Source: Candidatus Methylomirabilis sp.
GTDB lineage: Bacteria > Methylomirabilota > Methylomirabilia > Methylomirabilales > Methylomirabilaceae
DNA: 15,999 nucleotides
Direction: 5' to 3'
Assembly: GCA_041498975.1 (NCBI GenBank)
Contig: JBGQJI010000051.1
Coordinates: 1-15,999, forward strand
The position numbers and the translations under genes are program-made. Numbering within the stretch: position 1 is the stretch's first letter; every line of letters starts with the position of its first letter. The notes under the pieces are model-generated. The model ran no database searches and was not told the DNA's origin. It worked only from the letters and a program-made list of their open reading frames with translations. Of this stretch, positions 2,719-11,825 are shown piece by piece.

Positions 2719-3531
2719 ATGGCGCGGCAACTGAAAGGTGCGGCTGTCCTGATCACGGGCGCCTCATCGGGAATCGGAAAGGCGGCGGCGCTCGCTTTTG
2801 CGAGGGAGCGGGCGAGGCTCCTGCTGGCCGCGAGGCGCCGGGACCGGTTGGAGGAGGTAGCCGCGGGGGTCCGCGACCTGGGTGCCGAGGTGGTGGTGGT
2901 CCAGACCGATGTGGCCGACAGGCGGGAGGTCCAGTCGGCTGTGACCAGCGCGGTGTCCGCATTCGGCCGGCTTGACATCCTGGTCAACAACGCGGGGATC
3001 GGCTACTTCGGCTTGCTGGAGGACACGCCGACCGAGGCAATCGAGGCGCTCTGGGCCGTCAACATGATGGGGACGATTTACGCAACGCAGGCGGTCATTC
3101 CGCTGATGCGGAAGCAGGGGGGCGGCCACATCATCAACATCGCCTCGGTGGCCGGCAAGCGCGGCGCCCCCGGCAACAGCATCTACTGCGCCACGAAGTT
3201 CGCCATGGTCGGGCTGTCGGAGGCGCTGCGGGTGGAGTTGCACGGAAGCGGCATCAAGGTGAGCCTGATCTGTCCCATCACCACCAGCACCGAGTTCTTC
3301 GAGGCCTCATCGGCCCGCTCGAAAAGATTCCACCCGCCGACGGGCCCGATGCAGACAGCGGAGAAGGTGGCCAGGGCTATCATCCGCTGTGCCCGGCGGC
3401 CCCGCCCGGAGGTGATCGTCTTTCCCCCGGCCAGAATCCTCGTCCTGATTAACGCCCTTTCGCCCCGCCTGGCCGACCGGATTTTCCTGGGATTGCGACG
3501 TAGGCTGTTCAGGGGATTGGACGATCATTAG
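2719..3531 (+). CDS. Short-chain dehydrogenase/reductase (classical SDR)
   Basis: TGASSGIG, LVNNAG, catalytic S...YCATK; GGGGAG RBS upstream. Confidence 0.95.
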   Translation: MARQLKGAAVLITGASSGIGKAAALAFARERARLLLAARRRDRLEEVAAGVRDLGAEVVVVQTDVADRREVQSAVTSAVSAFGRLDILVNNAGIGYFGLLEDTPTEAIEALWAVNMMGTIYATQAVIPLMRKQGGGHIINIASVAGKRGAPGNSIYCATKFAMVGLSEALRVELHGSGIKVSLICPITTSTEFFEASSARSKRFHPPTGPMQTAEKVARAIIRCARRPRPEVIVFPPARILVLINALSPRLADRIFLGLRRRLFRGLDDH

Positions 3532-3950
3532 ATGAGGGGGGATGCTTTCAGGTGTTCATGCGCCTTGACCAGGAGGTCGCGGGAGTTCTTGAAGGTCAGC
3601 CGTTCGAGCGCGGTGTCGTAGGGCAGCCAGTCGAACCCGATGTGCTCGGAGGAGAGGGCGACTTCGGAGTAAGTAGTTTCTGCGAGAAAGTAGATGACGA
3701 CCTTGAAGATCCCGATCCCTTTCTGCCGGAAAAAATAGCGAAGCGTCTCCTTATAACCGTCCAGGAATCGGACCTGGGGGATCCCGGTCTCCTCCTTCAG
3801 CTCTCGCCTGGCCGTCTCCTGGGCATCTTCACCGGCCTCGATATGCCCTTTTGGGAAGTCCCAGTGACCGGACTCGTAATGGAGGAGGAGAAAATGGGGC
3901 TGCGGCGCTCGCCGGAACAGGATCACCCCTGCCGAGATCTCGCGCGGCAT
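3528..3950 (-). CDS. Nudix hydrolase, probable asymmetric diadenosine tetraphosphate (Ap4A) hydrolase
   Basis: Complete Nudix box GHIEAGEDAQETARRELKEETGI; FLLLHY..GHWDFPKGH and LSSEH..FDW resemble NUDT2/archaeal-type Ap4A hydrolases; AAGGAG RBS. Confidence 0.85.
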   Translation of the reverse strand: MPREISAGVILFRRAPQPHFLLLHYESGHWDFPKGHIEAGEDAQETARRELKEETGIPQVRFLDGYKETLRYFFRQKGIGIFKVVIYFLAETTYSEVALSSEHIGFDWLPYDTALERLTFKNSRDLLVKAHEHLKASPLI

Positions 3951-4052
3951 GTTGCGTCAGCTCCTTTCTGTCACTTTCCCCTGTCCCTAGCACGCACGAA
4001 GCGCGCTGGACAGTTACACTTCTTGCTTCCCTCAGAACCTGGGTTCATGCTA

Positions 4053-4058
4053 TATAAT
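4053..4058 (+). promoter_or_regulatory. Perfect sigma70 -10 box immediately before the ATG (probable leaderless transcript)
   Basis: TATAAT at 4053-4058, five bases before ATG4064; no SD sequence and no convincing -35. Confidence 0.6.
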
Positions 4059-4063
4059 ATCAC

Positions 4064-4381
4064 ATGAGCAAACATCCGGCGTTTGATCGTCCCTTCACCG
4101 TTTACGGTATCAACTTGGTGGTCCGGGTCCTCCGGGAACCGCCGGATACCCTGACGCTGCACTGCCCGCGCGGCGCCTCCATCAGATACGGCAGTGTGGT
4201 GGCGAGCGGTGACGGTTTTGATGAGGGGTCCAACTCCTTCCGAGAAATGCCCCCGCTGGAAGCGATCGTCGCCTTCGAGGAGGCGTCCGAGGGGGTGGAA
4301 GGGCATTACTTCTACCGGGACAACGAGGAGTATCGGGTCCTCTCCCTGGATTCGATCATCATCGCCTTTCCGCAGCCGTAG
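4064..4381 (+). CDS. Divergent GroES/Cpn10-like protein (orphan co-chaperonin fold)
   Basis: Aligns by eye to E. coli GroES: GSVVASGDG~GEVLAVGNG, IVAFEE~IVIFND, DNEEYRVLSLDSII~DNEEVLIMSESDIL; 105 aa. Confidence 0.7.
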   Translation: MSKHPAFDRPFTVYGINLVVRVLREPPDTLTLHCPRGASIRYGSVVASGDGFDEGSNSFREMPPLEAIVAFEEASEGVEGHYFYRDNEEYRVLSLDSIIIAFPQP

Positions 4382-4438
4382 CCATCCCTACCCCGTTCTC
4401 ACCTCGCCTCTGGGCCTGCCGAGGGCCGTCCAGGTTTC

Positions 4439-4467: not shown

Positions 4468-4540
4468 ACCACCGTCTTCCCGGGTCGTATGATGCCGAGT
4501 CCACATTTTCCTCTCCTTGGCGAGAACGAGGAGGAGGGGC

Positions 4541-6364
4541 GTGCCACTCTCGACGCTGAAGCGGAAACTTATCGGGACGCCTCTGAGGACCGCTGAGGCC
4601 TTCCACGAACGTCTCTCGAAGTTCGCCGCCCTCGCCGTTTTCTCCTCCGACGCCCTCTCGTCGGTCGCCTACGCGACTGAAGAGATCCTGCTGGTCCTCA
4701 TTGTGGCCGGCTCACTAGGGCTGCCCTGGTCCTTGCCCATCTCCGCAGCCATCGCCCTCCTCCTCCTGATCGTGACCACCTCCTACCGTCAGACGATCCA
4801 TGCCTATCCCTCCGGAGGCGGAGCCTACATCGTGGCGAAGGACAACCTCGGCGTGTATCCGGGCCTCATCGCAGCGGCCGCCCTTCTGATCGATTACGTC
4901 CTGACGGTGTCGGTCAGCGTGGCCGCCGGGGTGGCCGCGATCACATCAGCGCTGCCGATCCTCTACCCGCGCCGGGTCTATTTGGGCATTCTCTCCATCG
5001 GCCTGATCACGCTGGCCAATCTGCGGGGGGTCAAGGAATCCGGCCGGATCTTCGCCATTCCCACCTACCTCTTCATTTTCAGCTTTGCCGCGATGATCGG
5101 GGTCGGGCTCGCCCAGCATTTTTACTCCGGCGAAAACGCGGTGTCCGTCCTCACCTTCACCCAGCCCGCGCAGGAACTGACCCTCTTCCTCCTTCTCAGG
5201 GCCTTCGCCTCGGGCTGCACCGCTCTTACCGGTGTGGAGGCGATTTCGAACGGCATCCAGGCGTTCAAGTACCCGGAGTCGAGGAATGCCAGCATGACCC
5301 TCATGTGGATGGCGGGCATCTTGCTCACCCTCTTTTTGGGCATTACCGTCCTCTCTCACCTGCACCACGTCGTCCCGCGGCATGGCGAAACCCTCATCTC
5401 CCAGCTCTCTCGCGACATCTTCGGGAGCGGGATCTTCTACTATCTGATCCAGGCGGCGACCGCCATGATCCTGATCCTCGCCGCCAACACCAGCTTCGCC
5501 GACTTCCCCCGTCTGTCTTCGATCCTGGCGCGCGACCGGTTCCTGCCCCATCAACTGGCAAGCCAGGGAGATCGCCTCGTTTACTCGAACGGGATCATCA
5601 TCCTGGGGGTCGTTGCCTCTTCTCTGATCTGGCTGTTCAGTGGCGAAACGCACGCCCTGATCCCGCTCTACGCCGTTGGAGTCTTCCTCTCCTTCACACT
5701 GTCTCAGGCCGGGATGGTGCGGCACTGGCTGGCGCTGCGCACCTCCGGATGGCGACGGTCTGTCACCATCAACGGGCTGGGCGCGGTCTCGACCGCCGTC
5801 GTTCTGGCGGTGATCGCGGCGACGAAGTTCATCCATGGCGCCTGGATCGTCATCGCGCTGATCCCTCTGATGACCATGGGCTTCCGCAGGATCCACGAAC
5901 ATTATACCCTGATGGCAAAGCAGCTCTCGCTGCAGGGCTTCGAGCCGAGGAAGTTCCGGGAACAGATCGCGCTGGTTCCGGTCTCCGGGATTCATCGGGG
6001 GGTCGTCACCGCGCTGCAATACGCCAAGACCCTCTCGCCTCACGTGGAAGCGGTCTACGTGGATCTCGACGTCGAAGCGACAGAGACGCTTCGACGGCAT
6101 TGGGATACCTGGTCCGGCGGGACCGGTCTCGTGATCCTCGATTCGCCCTACCGCTCGGTCCTCGGGCCGTTGCTGGAGTACATCGAGGGGTTGGAAAGGG
6201 GGCACCCGGACGCTCTGATCACCGTCGTCCTGCCTTCGGTCGTTCCCGCCCGATGGTGGCACAATCTGCTCCACAACCAGACCGCCTGGTTCATCAAGGG
6301 CGCGCTTCTCTTCAAGAAGCATGTGATCGTGGTTACCGACGTCCCGCATTATCTGACGCAATAG
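4541..6364 (+). CDS. kimA: APC-superfamily KimA/YdaO-type potassium transporter
   Basis: LKRKLIGTPL, SSDALSSVAY, LLIDYVLTV, ALTGVEAISNG, NTSFADFPRL, many TM helices and a soluble C-terminal domain (SPYRS, LLHNQTA); GAGGAGG RBS before GTG4541. Confidence 0.85.
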   Translation: MPLSTLKRKLIGTPLRTAEAFHERLSKFAALAVFSSDALSSVAYATEEILLVLIVAGSLGLPWSLPISAAIALLLLIVTTSYRQTIHAYPSGGGAYIVAKDNLGVYPGLIAAAALLIDYVLTVSVSVAAGVAAITSALPILYPRRVYLGILSIGLITLANLRGVKESGRIFAIPTYLFIFSFAAMIGVGLAQHFYSGENAVSVLTFTQPAQELTLFLLLRAFASGCTALTGVEAISNGIQAFKYPESRNASMTLMWMAGILLTLFLGITVLSHLHHVVPRHGETLISQLSRDIFGSGIFYYLIQAATAMILILAANTSFADFPRLSSILARDRFLPHQLASQGDRLVYSNGIIILGVVASSLIWLFSGETHALIPLYAVGVFLSFTLSQAGMVRHWLALRTSGWRRSVTINGLGAVSTAVVLAVIAATKFIHGAWIVIALIPLMTMGFRRIHEHYTLMAKQLSLQGFEPRKFREQIALVPVSGIHRGVVTALQYAKTLSPHVEAVYVDLDVEATETLRRHWDTWSGGTGLVILDSPYRSVLGPLLEYIEGLERGHPDALITVVLPSVVPARWWHNLLHNQTAWFIKGALLFKKHVIVVTDVPHYLTQ

Positions 6365-6373
6365 GAGGAGGAC

Positions 6374-6958
6374 ATGAATGCCCCTTCAGCCTCACGCTAT
6401 CCTAAGACGATCAAACTCAAGGACGGGAGCGAGGTACTCGTCCGGTTCATGGATCAGGGCGACCAGGAACGCCTTCTGGACCTGTTCAAGCGTGTTCCGG
6501 AGGCGGAGCGGGTGTTCTTGCGCGAGGAGATGGCCAGGCCTGAGGCGGTTGAGGCCAGGATGCGGGCCCTAGAGCGCGGTCGGTTCACCGCCCTCGTGGC
6601 AGAGGCCGGAACGAGGGTCGTCGGCGAGGCAGTCCTTCAGCGTCGCCCGACCCATTGGCTCCATCATGTCGCTGAAGTGCACGTGGTCGTCGATTCGGCC
6701 TATCGGCGGGTGGGGCTGGCGCACAACCTGCTATACGAGCTCTTAGATCTGGCGAGAGACCAGGGGATCGAGACCCTCCTGGCGGAGATGATGTCCGAAC
6801 AGGTCGCGGCCATCAGCCTCTTCGAGCGGCTCGGCTTCAAGCGGGAGGCGGTCTTCCGGGAGCTCGTCAAAGACCTTCACGGCAAGCGGCACGACCTAGT
6901 GATCATGACCCGCGATCTGACCGTGAAAGGGAAGCGTTCGTCGGGCTGGTTCTGGTAG
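6374..6958 (+). CDS. GNAT-family N-acetyltransferase
   Basis: Acetyl-CoA motif VVVDSAYRRVGLA and C-terminal AISLFERLGF; GGAGGAGG RBS overlapping the upstream TAG. Confidence 0.9.
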   Translation: MNAPSASRYPKTIKLKDGSEVLVRFMDQGDQERLLDLFKRVPEAERVFLREEMARPEAVEARMRALERGRFTALVAEAGTRVVGEAVLQRRPTHWLHHVAEVHVVVDSAYRRVGLAHNLLYELLDLARDQGIETLLAEMMSEQVAAISLFERLGFKREAVFRELVKDLHGKRHDLVIMTRDLTVKGKRSSGWFW

Positions 6959-8038: not shown

Positions 8039-9006
8039 ACCCGCTCCAAGTAAAGATCCACGAATCGCCTGCTATCCACCTCCACGCACACCTGAAGGTT
8101 CGGCGGCTTCTTCCATCCCCCCTTGATCGGGCGCCTATCAGCGATCGTGCTCCCTTGGGAGGGCCCGGCCGCCGTTTCCACCTCGATATGAAATGGCCGG
8201 CGCCTCACGAGCGAGTGATCGATCACGATCCCGACGGCAAGCGGGTCGTGGAGTGGAATCGCAGCCAATCCCGTCCGCTCTTGTTCACGCCTCAATAGCC
8301 GTTGAGTCGAATCACAGACGAACTGGGTCACCCGATTCCCGATGGATCGAATTGATGCGTCGATCTTCTCCAGCGTGAGGATGGCCTGCTGCGTCACATC
8401 AAGCGGGACGAGGGTGATCGGAAGTCCCGAAGTAAAGGCGATCTCTGCCGCGTCGGGGTCTACGTACATGTTGAATTCTGCGCATGGCGTCACGTTGCCC
8501 GGCACCGCGATCGCTCCGCCCATGATGACGATCTCCTTGACCCTTGCCATCTTCGTCGGGGACGCAAGGATCGCCGTCGCCAGATTGGTGAGGGGGCCGA
8601 TGCAGACCAGGATGATCTCGCCCGGCGCGGAACCGATCAGTTCTGCGATCATCGCCGGAGCGTCCTCTCGCGTCACGGATCGTTTCGGGTCAGGGTACCG
8701 GGGCAGTCCCTCCCTGGTCCTAAAGCGGTATAGCTCACCTAACCCGTCCTCACCATGGTATTTGTGGGCCGTGAGGAGCACCTTCTTCAACGGGTGTCCG
8801 GCGCCTGCCACCACGGGGGGTCGTGGGTGGGAGTCGATCACGTCGAGGATCAAGCAGGCATTTCGCGCCGCCTGCCCCACCTCGACGTTGCCGGCCACGG
8901 TCGTGATCACCTCGACCGACAGCTCCGGCGAGGCGAGGGCCAGGATCAGCGCCAAGGCATCGTCGATGCCAGGATCCGTGTCGATGATCACGCGCGTCGG
9001 AGTCAT
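8020..9006 (-). CDS. Inosine/uridine-preferring nucleoside hydrolase (Rih family)
   Basis: DTDPGIDDA Ca-binding motif, HGEDGLG, GPLTNLA, AEFNMYVDPDAA, LHDPLAV; overlaps rbsK by 19 nt. Confidence 0.93.
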   Translation of the reverse strand: MTPTRVIIDTDPGIDDALALILALASPELSVEVITTVAGNVEVGQAARNACLILDVIDSHPRPPVVAGAGHPLKKVLLTAHKYHGEDGLGELYRFRTREGLPRYPDPKRSVTREDAPAMIAELIGSAPGEIILVCIGPLTNLATAILASPTKMARVKEIVIMGGAIAVPGNVTPCAEFNMYVDPDAAEIAFTSGLPITLVPLDVTQQAILTLEKIDASIRSIGNRVTQFVCDSTQRLLRREQERTGLAAIPLHDPLAVGIVIDHSLVRRRPFHIEVETAAGPSQGSTIADRRPIKGGWKKPPNLQVCVEVDSRRFVDLYLERVCRQLS

Positions 9007-9410
9007 TTCTTTTTTGTCCCGCCGCGATTGTACTCAAGTTCAGCCGAGCTTGCCAGATTGATGTTGGATTGCAATGCAACGTCTCCAATTGCGGGGCAGA
9101 GCTGGGCTAAATCCTATCCGCCAGGAAACCGGATTCCATATGCAGCGCAAAAGCCTCCGGATAGTTAGAGGTGGGTTACTAAGGTGTCAAAGGTGTGAGA
9201 GGAACGTCGCGTTTGGCAAGTAGATGATCGGGCTTTCAGCCCTGTACCCTTTGGTGCAGATTAGTAGTTGTAATCCACACGGGTCACCTGATCGTGGGAG
9301 GCGTTTGAGACAGAGCTTGACACCTTGCGGAGGCGAGATGGTGCCTTCGTAGGTAGTCGTGATGGTCCGCGGGTGAGCATAGGAGTTCAGCCCTCCCCCG
9401 CAAGTTCAGT

Positions 9411-9426
9411 TGGCGCACTATATGCA
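9411..9426 (+). promoter_or_regulatory. Putative sigma54 (-24/-12) promoter
   Basis: TGGCGC-ACTAT-ATGCA; exact GG-N10-GC spacing, close to the TGGCAC-N5-TTGCA consensus. Confidence 0.6.
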
Positions 9427-9501
9427 TAACGCCCTCTTGGGCCGACCCGGCCTGCGAGGGCGTTGGTACTTTAGGGCTCCGGGAGGGGAGGAGGCCCTGA
9501 T

Positions 9502-9567
9502 ATGAGGCGGGTGGGCCTGCAAAGGCTGAAGGACCTCCGCGACAAGACCTTCATCGGGTCACCATGA
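9502..9567 (+). CDS. Putative 21-aa small ORF (MRRVGLQRLKDLRDKTFIGSP)
   Basis: Strong SD GGGGAGGAGG 7 nt before ATG9502, downstream of the sigma54 motif; no recognisable homology. Confidence 0.3.
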   Translation: MRRVGLQRLKDLRDKTFIGSP

Positions 9568-9719
9568 TGCGGCCACGAGAGAGCCGCTGAGGCGGCCGTC
9601 GGAATAAGCGGAAGGTCGCTGTGACGCACGTCAGTAAGGAGCGGGGGACGGCACCGACACCCGGCTCAACACCAATGGACTTGGGCTAGAACAGCCCACC
9701 AGCAGGCAGGAGGAAACCG

Positions 9720-11825
9720 GTGTTGACAACACCGCACAGGATGGCACTGGGGGACCCGGAGCGTCGGGGCTGGGTGCCATTCTCTATTGATGGTCACGGT
9801 CCTCGATGGGCAGTTCGACTCTTGCTGGGTGTATGGCTTAGTCTAATATTGGTCGCTCGCCAAGGGAACGCAGCCGCCGAGGGGGTTCCAAGGGAGCTTT
9901 ATCAGAAAGCCTTTAGCGAGGGATCGGTAAGAGTGATTGCGCAGCTCCGGGTCCATACGACAGCGGAAGGACATCTTGAGGGCGCCCAAGCCGTAAGGTC
10001 ACAACGAAACGACATTGCTTCGGTTCGATCCACTGTACTCGCAGAGCTGGGAGGCAGTAGCCACCGAAAGATCCGAGAGTTCGAGACGATCCCCTTTGTG
10101 GCCTTGGAAGTGGGGCTTGATGCTCTATCCAAGCTTGAAGAGTCGATGAATGTCGTGGCGCTAGAGGAGGACCGCCTTGAGAGCCTCTTGCTAAGCCAAA
10201 GCGTCCCGCTCATAGGGGCCGACCAAGCCTGGACGGACGGCTTTGATGGCACGGGCATGGTGGTGGCCATTCTCGATTCCGGCGTCGATAAGACTCTTGC
10301 CTTCCTTTCAGGAAAGGTAGTGGAAGAGGCGTGCTTTTCCGCAAATGGGAGCTGCCCGAATGGTCTGAGCTCGCAGACCGGGAGCGGCGCAGGCGTCCCG
10401 TGCACCTATGCACCGAATGGCTGTCGGCACGGCACGTTCGTAGCTGGGATCGCGGCTGGGGCGGGGTCTAGTTTTTCTGGCGTGGCCAGGGGTGCCCGGC
10501 TTATCGTTGTTCAGGTTTTTTCTCGGTTTATAGGAGGCAATTGTACCGGCGAAGGCGAAGACCCCTGTGCGAAATCTTTTGTGTCCGATCAGATCGCGGG
10601 CCTGGAGCGGGTCTTTGCTCTGAGGGCTCAATACGCTATTGCAGCAGTCAACATGAGCATAGGCAGCGGAAGATTTACTTCTCCCTGTGACAGCACGCAA
10701 GCGGCCAGCAAGGCGGTGATCGACAACCTGCGGTCGGTAGGCATAGCCACAATCGTTGCATCAGGGAATGACGGATTCCCCGATGGCATCGATGCACCGG
10801 CCTGCATCTCCACCGCTATCAGTGTCGGGTCCAGCACCAAGGCCGATACTGTCTCGTCCTTCTCAAACTCTGCGTCCTTCCTTTCGCTCTTGGCCCCGGG
10901 GGAGTCGATCATCTCATTCGTCCCCGGCGGTGGCCTCGCCATCGGTAGTGGTACTTCGTTTGGGGCGCCCCACGTGACTGGGGCCTGGGCCATTCTGAAG
11001 CAAAGGAACCCTAGTGCAACGGTTGGTGAGGTGCTGGCGGCTTTGACGAGTACCGGGCTACCAATCACCGACCCGAAGAATGGCATCACCAAACCACGTA
11101 TTCGGGTAAACCTGGCCCTTCACACTTCTTCGCCGCTTGCCGCTCAAGCTTTCGTCACCCGCCTCTACGAGCAGGTCCTCAACCGCGAGCCTGACTCCGA
11201 CGGCCTGCAGGGCTTCATCGACCAGATCGCCGAGTTCGGCTCGGTGGTCCCGACCGTGCTCGCCTTCTTCCAGTCGCAGGAGTTCCTGGGCCGCAATACT
11301 TCCAACGCCCAGTTCCTCACGATCCTCTATCACACTTTCCTGGACCGGGACCCCGACCCCAGTGGCTTCAATGCCTTCCTCGCGGATCTGCAATCGGGCC
11401 TTCGGACCCGGGACAACCTCCTTGACATCTTCCTCGACTCGCACGAGTTCGCCAGCCTGGCGAGCTTCCTGCCGCCCCAGGACCCGGTGACCGCCTTCGT
11501 CACCACCCTCTACGTCCGGATCCTGGGTCGGGGGCCAGACCAAGCGGGCCTCCAGGGCTCCGTGACGCAGCTCGAGCAGACCCGCACGGTCTTGCCCACG
11601 GTGAACTGCTTCCTCGCCTCCCAGGAGTTCCTGGATCGCCACGCGACCAACACTGAGTTCGTCACGCTGCTCTACCGGGTCTTCCTCAACCGCGTTCCAG
11701 ATGCCGCTGGCCTGACGGGATTTGTGGCCACGCTCAACCAGGAGGCCGTCACTCGAGCCCAACTCGCGTCACAGTTCGCCGCTGCGCCCGAGTTCCAAGC
11801 AATCCAGCATCAGTTGTTCCCCTAG
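9720..11825 (+). CDS. Secreted S8 (subtilisin-like) serine peptidase with C-terminal DUF4214-like repeats
   Basis: AGGAGG RBS before GTG9720; hydrophobic signal-like segment; propeptide; triad ILDSG / HGTFVAG / GTSFGAPHV and oxyanion ASGND; four FV..LY...L.R.PD..G repeats. Confidence 0.9.
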   Translation: MLTTPHRMALGDPERRGWVPFSIDGHGPRWAVRLLLGVWLSLILVARQGNAAAEGVPRELYQKAFSEGSVRVIAQLRVHTTAEGHLEGAQAVRSQRNDIASVRSTVLAELGGSSHRKIREFETIPFVALEVGLDALSKLEESMNVVALEEDRLESLLLSQSVPLIGADQAWTDGFDGTGMVVAILDSGVDKTLAFLSGKVVEEACFSANGSCPNGLSSQTGSGAGVPCTYAPNGCRHGTFVAGIAAGAGSSFSGVARGARLIVVQVFSRFIGGNCTGEGEDPCAKSFVSDQIAGLERVFALRAQYAIAAVNMSIGSGRFTSPCDSTQAASKAVIDNLRSVGIATIVASGNDGFPDGIDAPACISTAISVGSSTKADTVSSFSNSASFLSLLAPGESIISFVPGGGLAIGSGTSFGAPHVTGAWAILKQRNPSATVGEVLAALTSTGLPITDPKNGITKPRIRVNLALHTSSPLAAQAFVTRLYEQVLNREPDSDGLQGFIDQIAEFGSVVPTVLAFFQSQEFLGRNTSNAQFLTILYHTFLDRDPDPSGFNAFLADLQSGLRTRDNLLDIFLDSHEFASLASFLPPQDPVTAFVTTLYVRILGRGPDQAGLQGSVTQLEQTRTVLPTVNCFLASQEFLDRHATNTEFVTLLYRVFLNRVPDAAGLTGFVATLNQEAVTRAQLASQFAAAPEFQAIQHQLFP
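11142..11822 (+). repeat. Internal tandem duplication of a ~115-aa DUF4214-like unit
   Basis: AQAFVTRLYEQVLNREPD (11142) and VTAFVTTLYVRILGRGPD (11487) are 345 nt apart; each unit has VxPTV..F..SQEFL.R...N..F.T.LY..FL.R.PD. Confidence 0.8.

Follow-up and report, generated by a model that had tools for sequence, protein, structure and literature searches.

A diverged, phylum-wide protein of Methylomirabilota with a predicted Cpn10 fold and a non-canonical counterpart of the GroES mobile loop

GroES is among the most uniform proteins in biology, and its extra copies are usually recognisable and lie beside groEL. The subunits of GroES rings are joined by their N- and C-terminal strands. The gp31 protein of phage T4 is a working lid that serves the phage capsid protein; it has no roof hairpin and carries a longer mobile loop. 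Arabidopsis Cpn10(1) is reported to form inactive dimers when alone and to be functional only in a hetero-oligomer with Cpn20 (PMC4242682), and Helicobacter pylori HspA is a precedent for a metal-handling Cpn10-fold protein (PMC8779794). Here, we analysed a stretch of 15,999 nucleotides (nt) from Candidatus Methylomirabilis sp. (assembly GCA_041498975.1, contig JBGQJI010000051.1; the whole stretch is called the window below). Our subject is the protein encoded at positions 4064–4381 of its forward strand, for which X is used as shorthand.

X escapes all sequence-family models, yet it is single-copy and almost unchanged across a phylum to which both Methylomirabilis, which oxidises methane with nitrite, and the Rokubacteria, which abound in soil, belong. 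We tentatively favour the view that X retains the Cpn10 fold but has been turned from the canonical capping of GroEL to another use, and we judge this nearly as likely to be right as to be wrong.

4064..4381, forward strand, stop codon included: coding sequence of X, predicted Cpn10-fold protein (open reading frame and translation, dN/dS, homologues, AlphaFold2 model, fold matches)

The open reading frame (ORF) starts with ATG and encodes 105 residues plus a stop codon according to the ORF listing and translation of the window, and both the ORF and the protein sequence agree with those reported in a first-pass annotation of this DNA. The product is acidic: its translation contains 16 acidic residues (Asp and Glu) and 9 basic ones (Lys and Arg). 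Among eight copies from the genus Methylomirabilis, the ratio of nonsynonymous to synonymous substitution rates (dN/dS) was 0.016–0.157 in 28 of 28 pairs (dS 0.25–2.1), which indicates a real gene under strong purifying selection. NC10 copies are 57–65% identical to most Rokubacteria copies.

Predicted fold and sequence relationships of X

The AlphaFold2 model of X, built on an alignment of 21 homologues, had a mean predicted local distance difference test score (pLDDT) of 84.0 and a predicted template modelling score (pTM) of 0.76. The first-pass annotation had described X as a highly diverged GroES fold and had proposed a Foldseek check against Cpn10. In a Foldseek search of the PDB with this model, all listed matches down to rank 34 were Cpn10-type chains, with a best E of 7.9e-5 and template modelling (TM) scores of 0.58–0.62. 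Bacterial GroES proteins from several species, human Hsp10 and T4 gp31 were among these matches, as were chains of 7ekq, a chloroplast ClpP complex bearing Cpn10-like co-chaperonin subunits. The proposed fold was supported by this search and also by VIA, an independent all-against-all search in which X matched 4pj1_O (Z 9.3, root-mean-square deviation (rmsd) 4.4, 85 positions aligned), 8wuc_a (Z 9.1, rmsd 4.5, 82 positions), 7ekq_S (Z 8.8, rmsd 3.4, 82 positions) and gp31 (1g31_A; Z 7.5, rmsd 3.9, 83 positions). The next fold comprised the GroES-like N-domains of medium-chain dehydrogenases/reductases (MDR), with Z values of 5.0–3.0. As a control, we modelled a genuine GroES of a relative, which gave Z values of 14.2, 13.2, 11.1 and 9.0 with the same four chains and 6.6 with the dehydrogenase domains. 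By these control values, the distance between X and cellular Cpn10 is about that between a true GroES and gp31.

Two further searches agreed. With the model of X, BFVD returned almost exclusively viral entries named 'co-chaperonin GroES' (best E 6.2e-6, TM 0.67). In the ESM Atlas feature search, 28 of the 30 matches lay in clusters carrying PF00166, and the domain was present in 11–29% of the members of the three clusters listed; the top score was 0.96, to be read with a recognition value of 2202, which by the tool's own standard is too low for a high score to count as strong evidence. After removal of the PF00166 clusters, nothing usable was left in this search. The model of X and that of the control GroES agreed in the order of their strands and other DSSP elements, and both had a short two-strand roof hairpin, so that the predicted model of X contains the Cpn10 beta-barrel with its roof. 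On this model the Cpn10 fold of X is well supported; common ancestry with Cpn10 is likely, although unproven by sequence.

Sequence-family searches gave almost nothing. X matched no Pfam family at E ≤ 1 and no NCBIfam family at E ≤ 10, and none of 19 family members had a Cpn10 match in Pfam at E ≤ 10. X gave no match to the PF00166 profile hidden Markov model, at the gathering score or at any other threshold tried, and scans of whole genomes with PF00166 recovered the canonical groES and never the X locus. PDB family-profile searches with the X family returned no match at E ≤ 10. A phmmer search of the PDB listed 13 matches at E 0.79–1.6, such as ethylene-forming enzyme and GID4, with no chaperonin among them, and we judged them to be noise. 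Three long matches in the representatives search (P0031, P0061 and P0067) proved to be unrelated repeat proteins. In PHROGs, the 'co-chaperonin GroES' family was weakly matched by 2 of 19 X-family members (best E 0.0092).

We aligned the X family (77 sequences) by hhalign with the GroES of relatives. The alignment covered 78 columns in a topologically correct register (P 0.022, probability 2.2%), a result whose strength is limited by the GroES side, which had only ten close sequences with an effective sequence number (Neff) of 1.4. A smaller X alignment gave 57 columns and a P of 0.044. The aligned blocks were LVVRVL with ILVKRL, GSVVASGDG with GEVIAVGPG, IVAFEE with ILFGKY, and DNEEYRVLSLDSII with DDEEFLIMREEDVL. 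Four beta-core blocks had been aligned in the first-pass annotation, and they fall into the same register here, with a weak signal.

Anatomy, chaperonin context, upstream signals and descent

Three segments of X can be compared with parts of GroES; the conservation figures refer to the alignment of 77 sequences.

4130..4180, forward strand: counterpart of the GroES mobile loop, LREPPDTLTLHCPRGAS, codons 23–39 (hhalign, 77-sequence alignment, pLDDT)
4208..4252, forward strand: counterpart of the roof hairpin, GDGFDEGSNSFREMP, codons 49–63 (conservation in 77 sequences, hairpin in the model)
4271..4315, forward strand: acidic segment, AFEEASEGVEGHYFY, codons 70–84 (conservation, hhalign gap, pLDDT)

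The GroES of relatives has the usual PLHDRI motif and a KKGGIIIPD loop. X has VYGIN in the place of the first, in keeping with the loss of PLxDRV reported in the first-pass annotation, and V13-Y14-G15-x-N17 is conserved in the X family where GroES has its N-terminal PLxDR. The same annotation had called the loop non-canonical, slightly shorter and Cys-bearing, and this was borne out. The loop counterpart is three residues shorter than the GroES loop (a three-column hhalign gap), and it ends in an invariant Cys34, Pro35 and Gly37 (Cys-Pro-x-Gly). Residues T29–L32 of X (T-L-T-L) were aligned with G-I-I-I of the relatives' GroES, and the family consensus at these positions reads D-V-R-V. Arg occupies position 31 in 65% of the sequences, positions 30 and 32 remain hydrophobic throughout, and the loop is 21% Pro and 9% Gly. 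The tip (positions 24–33) is the most variable region of the family. Thus, a flexible, Gly-flanked loop with a conserved hydrophobic tripeptide of the I-V-L type, which in GroES docks onto GroEL, is absent from X. The loop blocks had pLDDT values of 85 and 79 in X against 46 in the control GroES, in whose model residues 18–24 and 28–30 fell below 50. The loop is accordingly predicted to be ordered in X and disordered in the control.

The strongest conservation lies elsewhere. The roof hairpin, GDGFDEGxNxFRxMP, is nearly invariant and is among the most conserved segments of X: G49, G51, D53 and R60 are invariant, and D50, F52, G55, N57, F59, M62 and P63 are at least 95% conserved. In the acidic segment, AFEExxExVEGHYFY, the residues F71, E72, G80 and H81 are invariant, and A70, E73, E76, V78, E79, Y82, F83 and Y84 are at least 95% conserved. 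This segment is four residues longer than the corresponding GroES turn (a four-column gap in GroES), and residues 71–80 have the lowest confidence in the model (pLDDT 65). The N-terminal segment (V13, Y14, G15 and N17) and the C-terminal strand are also highly conserved, and the N-terminal segment has no strand partner inside the monomer model. The conservation of these two parts is an indirect hint of a homo-heptameric ring.

We then asked which chaperonin genes accompany X. Among the relatives searched, an ordinary groES (about 125 bits against PF00166) was found in 33 of 41 genomes and in 20 of the 21 high-quality ones, and GroEL was found in 36 of 41. GroEL was a single match in 15 of the 16 Methylomirabilis-genus genomes with a match; the remaining one (G001, 8% contamination) had two. 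In the closed 2.75-Mb genome G008, groEL lies at 2,112,361–2,113,860 and groES at 2,114,036–2,114,308, and X lies about 295 kb away at approximately 2,409,156–2,409,470. The single GroEL is already paired with groES, which leaves no orphan GroEL that could be served by X. The first-pass statement that no groEL is adjacent holds in the window and in G008, and X was outside any groES-groEL operon in the related loci examined as well. Neither groES (PF00166) nor groEL (PF00118) was found in the window's own assembly (G000, 84.9% complete, 241 contigs), against 33 and 36, respectively, of the 40 relatives searched, and this is probably an assembly gap. No CIRCE-like element (controlling inverted repeat of chaperone expression) was found in the window with up to three mismatches.

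X has a conserved element of its own directly before the start codon.

4048..4058, forward strand: extended −10-like promoter element, TGCTATATAAT, with 5 nt between its end and the ATG

All nine Methylomirabilis upstream regions carry TG[C/G]TATATA[A/G]TAnCAC directly before the ATG (4048–4063 in the window), and the DNA further upstream varies. The putative −10 hexamer ends 5–7 nt before the start codon and no Shine-Dalgarno sequence was seen; thus, the mRNA of X may be leaderless or nearly so, with a transcription start placed from sequence. Nearly all of 80 related loci show a TGnTAnnnT element upstream of X. The strict in-frame pattern TGnTAnnnT-N5-8-start occurred in 21 of the 80 against about 0.002 expected per locus, an excess that gives no probability since the loci are mutually related. 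Several NC10 lineages have instead a leader of 30–40 nt with GGAGG. The element was missed by a simple sigma-70 scan that requires both hexamers, and the window scan found no terminator-like site after X. Only one RNA run, a soil library, had a word share, a small one of 0.06; its contigs, which come from relatives and are mostly 85–95% identical, cover the ORF, and one of 338 bases spans 4047–4368. These contigs are a weak hint of expression, given that DNA may be present in the library and that a transcript start cannot be read from contigs. One contig of a relative skips 67 nt just past the stop codon of X (4368–4436 in the window), most likely an intergenic length difference in another strain and no processing.

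The protein search found 20 close homologues, and the profile search found 382 protein clusters (90% identity) at E ≤ 1. Among the best 120 of these 382 clusters there was no Pfam domain and every named one was a 'hypothetical protein', the name that pipelines might give it according to the first-pass annotation. Profile searches of the phylum, whose tallies include the unpublished genomes G027, G066, G075 and G217, found X in 204 of 251 Methylomirabilota genomes, 91 of the 104 high-quality genomes and 58 of 68 genera, nearly always in one copy per genome. The label 'orphan' given to X earlier is therefore apt in that no groEL is its neighbour, but not as a description of this large, vertically inherited family. 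X was not found in family f6 (0 of 21 genomes) or in a few small families. Four of the five f6 genomes searched for PF00166 (G028, G032, G035 and G038) had two or three matches each, some of them fragments at contig ends, against a single match in most X-bearing genomes. These extra matches could reflect genome size or a real trade-off.

Named records place X in NC10/Methylomirabilales and in Rokubacteria. In a quick tree, the genus Methylomirabilis formed one clade (support 99), and the NC10 sequences grouped together, nested among Rokubacteria. This topology fits vertical descent. Some metagenome-assembled genomes labelled Patescibacteria, Binatia, Nitrosotalea and Verrucomicrobiia (loci L055, L086, L100, L109 and L119) also carry X. 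Their copies sit on near-zero branches inside NC10 or Rokubacteria clades of the same tree, and because of this mislabelling or contamination of the bins is probable. A search of viral contigs found no relative and no phage genes were seen near X, and a phage origin was rejected. In all loci checked, X is a stand-alone protein of about 100 residues. Frames of 703–808 residues around X in five Rokubacteria loci were rejected as fusions, being Arg/Pro/Gly-rich read-through of high-GC DNA, and a search for longer homologues, which gives weak evidence, found none. The copies of M. oxyfera (CBE69876.1 / D5ML34) and M. lanthanidiphila (MELA_00352) are unannotated. The literature search returned no paper naming CBE69876, D5ML34 or MELA_00352, and for Methylomirabilis with GroES the titles and opening lines of abstracts among the matches listed were not about X.

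Explanations for the role of X

If X has been repurposed, it would be a remote, phylum-specific relative of Cpn10/GroES that keeps the whole beta-barrel, the roof hairpin and the terminal strands. It would no longer act as a general GroEL lid, having a shorter, Pro-rich, predicted-ordered loop whose variable tip is mostly V-R-V. Selection would instead have fixed the Cys-Pro-x-Gly motif, the acidic roof hairpin, and an extended, flexible acidic segment ending in His. X would form a small GroES-like oligomer, probably a ring, and its acidic and Cys/His surface would hold a partner protein, a metal or a cofactor. It would work alongside the ordinary GroES-GroEL system and be transcribed from a strong extended −10 promoter of its own. 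The newly conserved surface, this promoter, the vertical, single-copy distribution over the phylum and the lack of a conserved chaperone gene among the neighbours examined also speak for the proposal. The oligomeric state, the independence from GroEL and the nature of the ligand are what we infer in this proposal. Four functions had been suggested in the first-pass annotation, namely a substrate-specific lid, a GroEL antagonist, a hetero-oligomer subunit and a ring repurposed for another partner. The evidence leans to the last, because the loop is Pro-rich and predicted to be ordered, its tip is the least conserved part and mostly has Arg in the middle, and the conserved surfaces lie elsewhere. 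A role as a general lid is opposed by the canonical groES-groEL of the relatives, the lack of CIRCE in the window and the variable, Arg-bearing tip. A full version of the proposal, in which X makes a second, phylum-wide and GroEL-independent Cpn10-fold ring whose invariant Cys-Pro/acidic/His surface binds a metal, a cofactor or a dedicated client, is conceivable but doubtful. Such a ring would be the first case of a cellular Cpn10-family protein devoted to a task outside the chaperonin cycle.

X might also be a specialised co-chaperonin that serves the single GroEL as an additional lid or mixes into GroES heptamers as a subunit. Its Pro-stiffened loop would dock through the hydrophobic positions 30 and 32, and X would alter the cage for particular clients. 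The predicted model would suit such a role, with the full Cpn10 topology, the roof hairpin and conserved N- and C-terminal strands. The hhalign result sets L30-T31-L32 on I-I-I, and the two flanking positions are hydrophobic in the whole family. X is as distant from GroES as gp31, which is itself a working lid, and the Cpn10(1) hetero-oligomer (PMC4242682) offers a precedent. However, the tip on which docking would depend is the least conserved part of the protein, its middle residue is mostly Arg, and the loop is Pro-rich rather than Gly-rich and predicted to be ordered. X was never beside groEL or groES in the loci examined, no CIRCE was found in the window, and the lone GroEL of Methylomirabilis is already paired with groES. 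Conservation is strongest in the roof and the acidic segment, and in GroES these are not the parts that contact GroEL (1AON complex). We regard a specialised lid as rather unlikely. A third possibility is a monomeric or dimeric small beta-barrel that forms no ring and uses Cys34, His81 and the acidic residues to bind a metal, heme or small ligand, sharing with GroES only the fold, either by very old common ancestry or by convergence. The invariance of Cys34-Pro35, His81, Asp53 and Glu72, together with further conserved acidic residues, would fit a binding site of this kind. In 35 Rokubacteria loci the gene after X, at most 10 nt away, encodes an M20 metallohydrolase, 49 of 80 loci have a Memo-like gene downstream, the sequence searches gave no significant Cpn10 signal, and the fold is common to the zinc-binding N-domains of MDR dehydrogenases (Z up to 5.0). 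But the Cpn10 chains reached Z 9.3–7.5 against 5.0 for these domains, conservation is high in the N-terminal segment and the C-terminal strand, the parts through which GroES subunits pair with one another, and the M20 query was unmatched in four of five Methylomirabilales genomes that all carry X. We regard a small barrel without a ring as unlikely. Finally, the notion that the ORF is non-functional and resembles GroES by chance has the missing family match as its sole point in favour. It is refuted by the conservation data (dN/dS, the identity between NC10 and most Rokubacteria copies, and presence in 204 of 251 genomes); the confident fold prediction and the agreeing matches in three structure libraries also speak against it, and its probability is close to nil.

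Several points weigh against a repurposed Cpn10 protein. No sequence method makes the relationship of X to Cpn10 significant, and the hhalign probability against GroES, at 2.2%, is weak. The choice between homology and convergence depends mainly on a predicted model from a shallow alignment of 21 sequences. The pLDDT is a proxy for order and no measurement; a pre-formed loop need not prevent GroEL binding, and docking through an alternating L-T-L or V-R-V strand is still conceivable. Gene neighbours vary from lineage to lineage and do not point consistently to any function.

The family is of interest on either outcome. If X still caps GroEL, it would be a cellular counterpart of gp31 and a natural experiment in lid alteration; if it does not, a co-chaperonin scaffold would have been turned to another job. 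With at least 382 clusters (90% identity, E ≤ 1), this unannotated family deserves a family model and a structure, and X is a clean marker gene for Methylomirabilota.

Neighbouring genes and comparison with known systems

The genes next to X in the window are the following.

3528..3950, reverse strand: NUDIX hydrolase gene, divergent, upstream of X (Pfam NUDIX, E 8.2e-21)
4517–6958, forward strand: APC-type permease and GNAT acetyltransferase genes, between X and the PfkB kinase gene

A survey of the gene neighbourhood had been proposed in the first-pass annotation, and it revealed lineage-specific neighbours and no chaperonin gene adjoining X; no chaperone or chaperonin gene occurred among the neighbours examined in related loci. 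The divergent NUDIX-X pair was present in all eight Methylomirabilis-genus loci (L025–L029, L037, L038 and the window), and across the phylum NUDIX adjoins X in 9 of 80 loci; it was not seen beside X in the loci of other genera examined. The permease gene lies 135 nt downstream of X in the window and is followed by the GNAT gene. It encodes 615 residues, with an AA_permease_2 domain and a C-terminal extension of about 180 residues. Both genes stand beside X in the window and in G009 and are missing there in G008, G006, G012, G019 and G007, where a convergent PfkB kinase gene lies downstream of X. This looks like a two-gene insertion/deletion polymorphism within the genus.

Other lineages have other arrangements. 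In genus g4 the order is citrate synthase, X, a short-chain dehydrogenase/reductase and a MacB-type ABC transporter, and in genus g7 it is PriA, X and SelA. Rokubacteria have rmuC, X, an M20 deacylase of the ArgE/DapE family and a Memo-like gene. The M20 gene is downstream of X on the same strand in 45 of 80 loci (67 of which had room), with the estimated gap of at most 10 nt in 35 of the 45, and rmuC is upstream in 33 of 80. The tight rmuC-X-M20-memo cluster was seen at L104:4504-8759 and in 44 further Rokubacteria loci, and the M20 gene there often starts with GTG 6–8 nt past the stop codon of X. The Rokubacteria M20 query had no match in G000, G008, G006 and G022, the four X-bearing genomes already mentioned. 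Thus, X is independent of M20, which is no obligate partner. We rejected the neighbourhood as a clue to function because the neighbours are lineage-specific.

Elsewhere in the window, scans for Rfam families and tRNA genes found nothing. An intergenic region of about 710 nt (9007–9719) has no ORF of at least 60 residues, no tRNA and no Rfam match, and the lowest G+C of the window, 0.554 at 9001–9500, falls within and around it. It lies upstream of a gene for a secreted-type subtilase (9720–11825, forward strand; Peptidase_S8) with three C-terminal DUF4214 repeats.

The closest known system is GroES/Cpn10 (PF00166) itself. X shares with it a length of about 100 residues, an acidic composition, the strand order, the roof hairpin, the top structural match and an alignment register over 78 columns. 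However, X lacks both PLxDR and GG-I-[VI]-[LI], its loop is shorter, Pro-rich and predicted to be ordered, and a four-residue insertion forms the acidic EGVEGH segment. In addition, X lies outside the groEL operon, alongside a true groES elsewhere in the genome.

Like X, the phage co-chaperonins, T4 gp31 among them, combine the Cpn10 fold with a sequence identity to GroES that is close to nil. The structural distances are also alike, with Z of about 9 from X to GroES structures and 9.0 from the genuine GroES model to gp31, and the language-model features of X in the ESM Atlas are nearest to phage Cpn10-like clusters. Proteins of the gp31 type are phage-encoded, with a long loop, and lack a roof hairpin. 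X differs from them in that its gene is a vertically inherited single copy on the chromosome, with no relative found in viral contigs, and in that it combines a roof hairpin with a shorter loop. Its match to 1g31_A (Z 7.5) is below those to cellular Cpn10.

Arabidopsis Cpn10(1) (PMC4242682) resembles X in being an extra Cpn10 paralogue that is no lid by itself. But Cpn10(1) is of a recognisable PF00166 type and works in a plastid with several Cpn60 types, whereas X is far more diverged and exists beside a single GroEL. In HspA, a His/Cys-rich C-terminal tail that binds nickel is added to a canonical GroES. This tail is missing from X, where the residues that might bind a ligand (Cys34, His81 and acidic residues) are situated in the barrel loops. 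The ADH_N domain of MDR alcohol dehydrogenases shares the superfold with X and gave the next structural matches (Z 5.0–3.0). Unlike ADH_N, X has no Rossmann domain fused to it and no Pfam profile match, and these Z values are much lower than those for Cpn10. X thus belongs to the known Cpn10 fold class and stands outside the curated family; what is new is its loop architecture and its conserved surface, both within one phylum.

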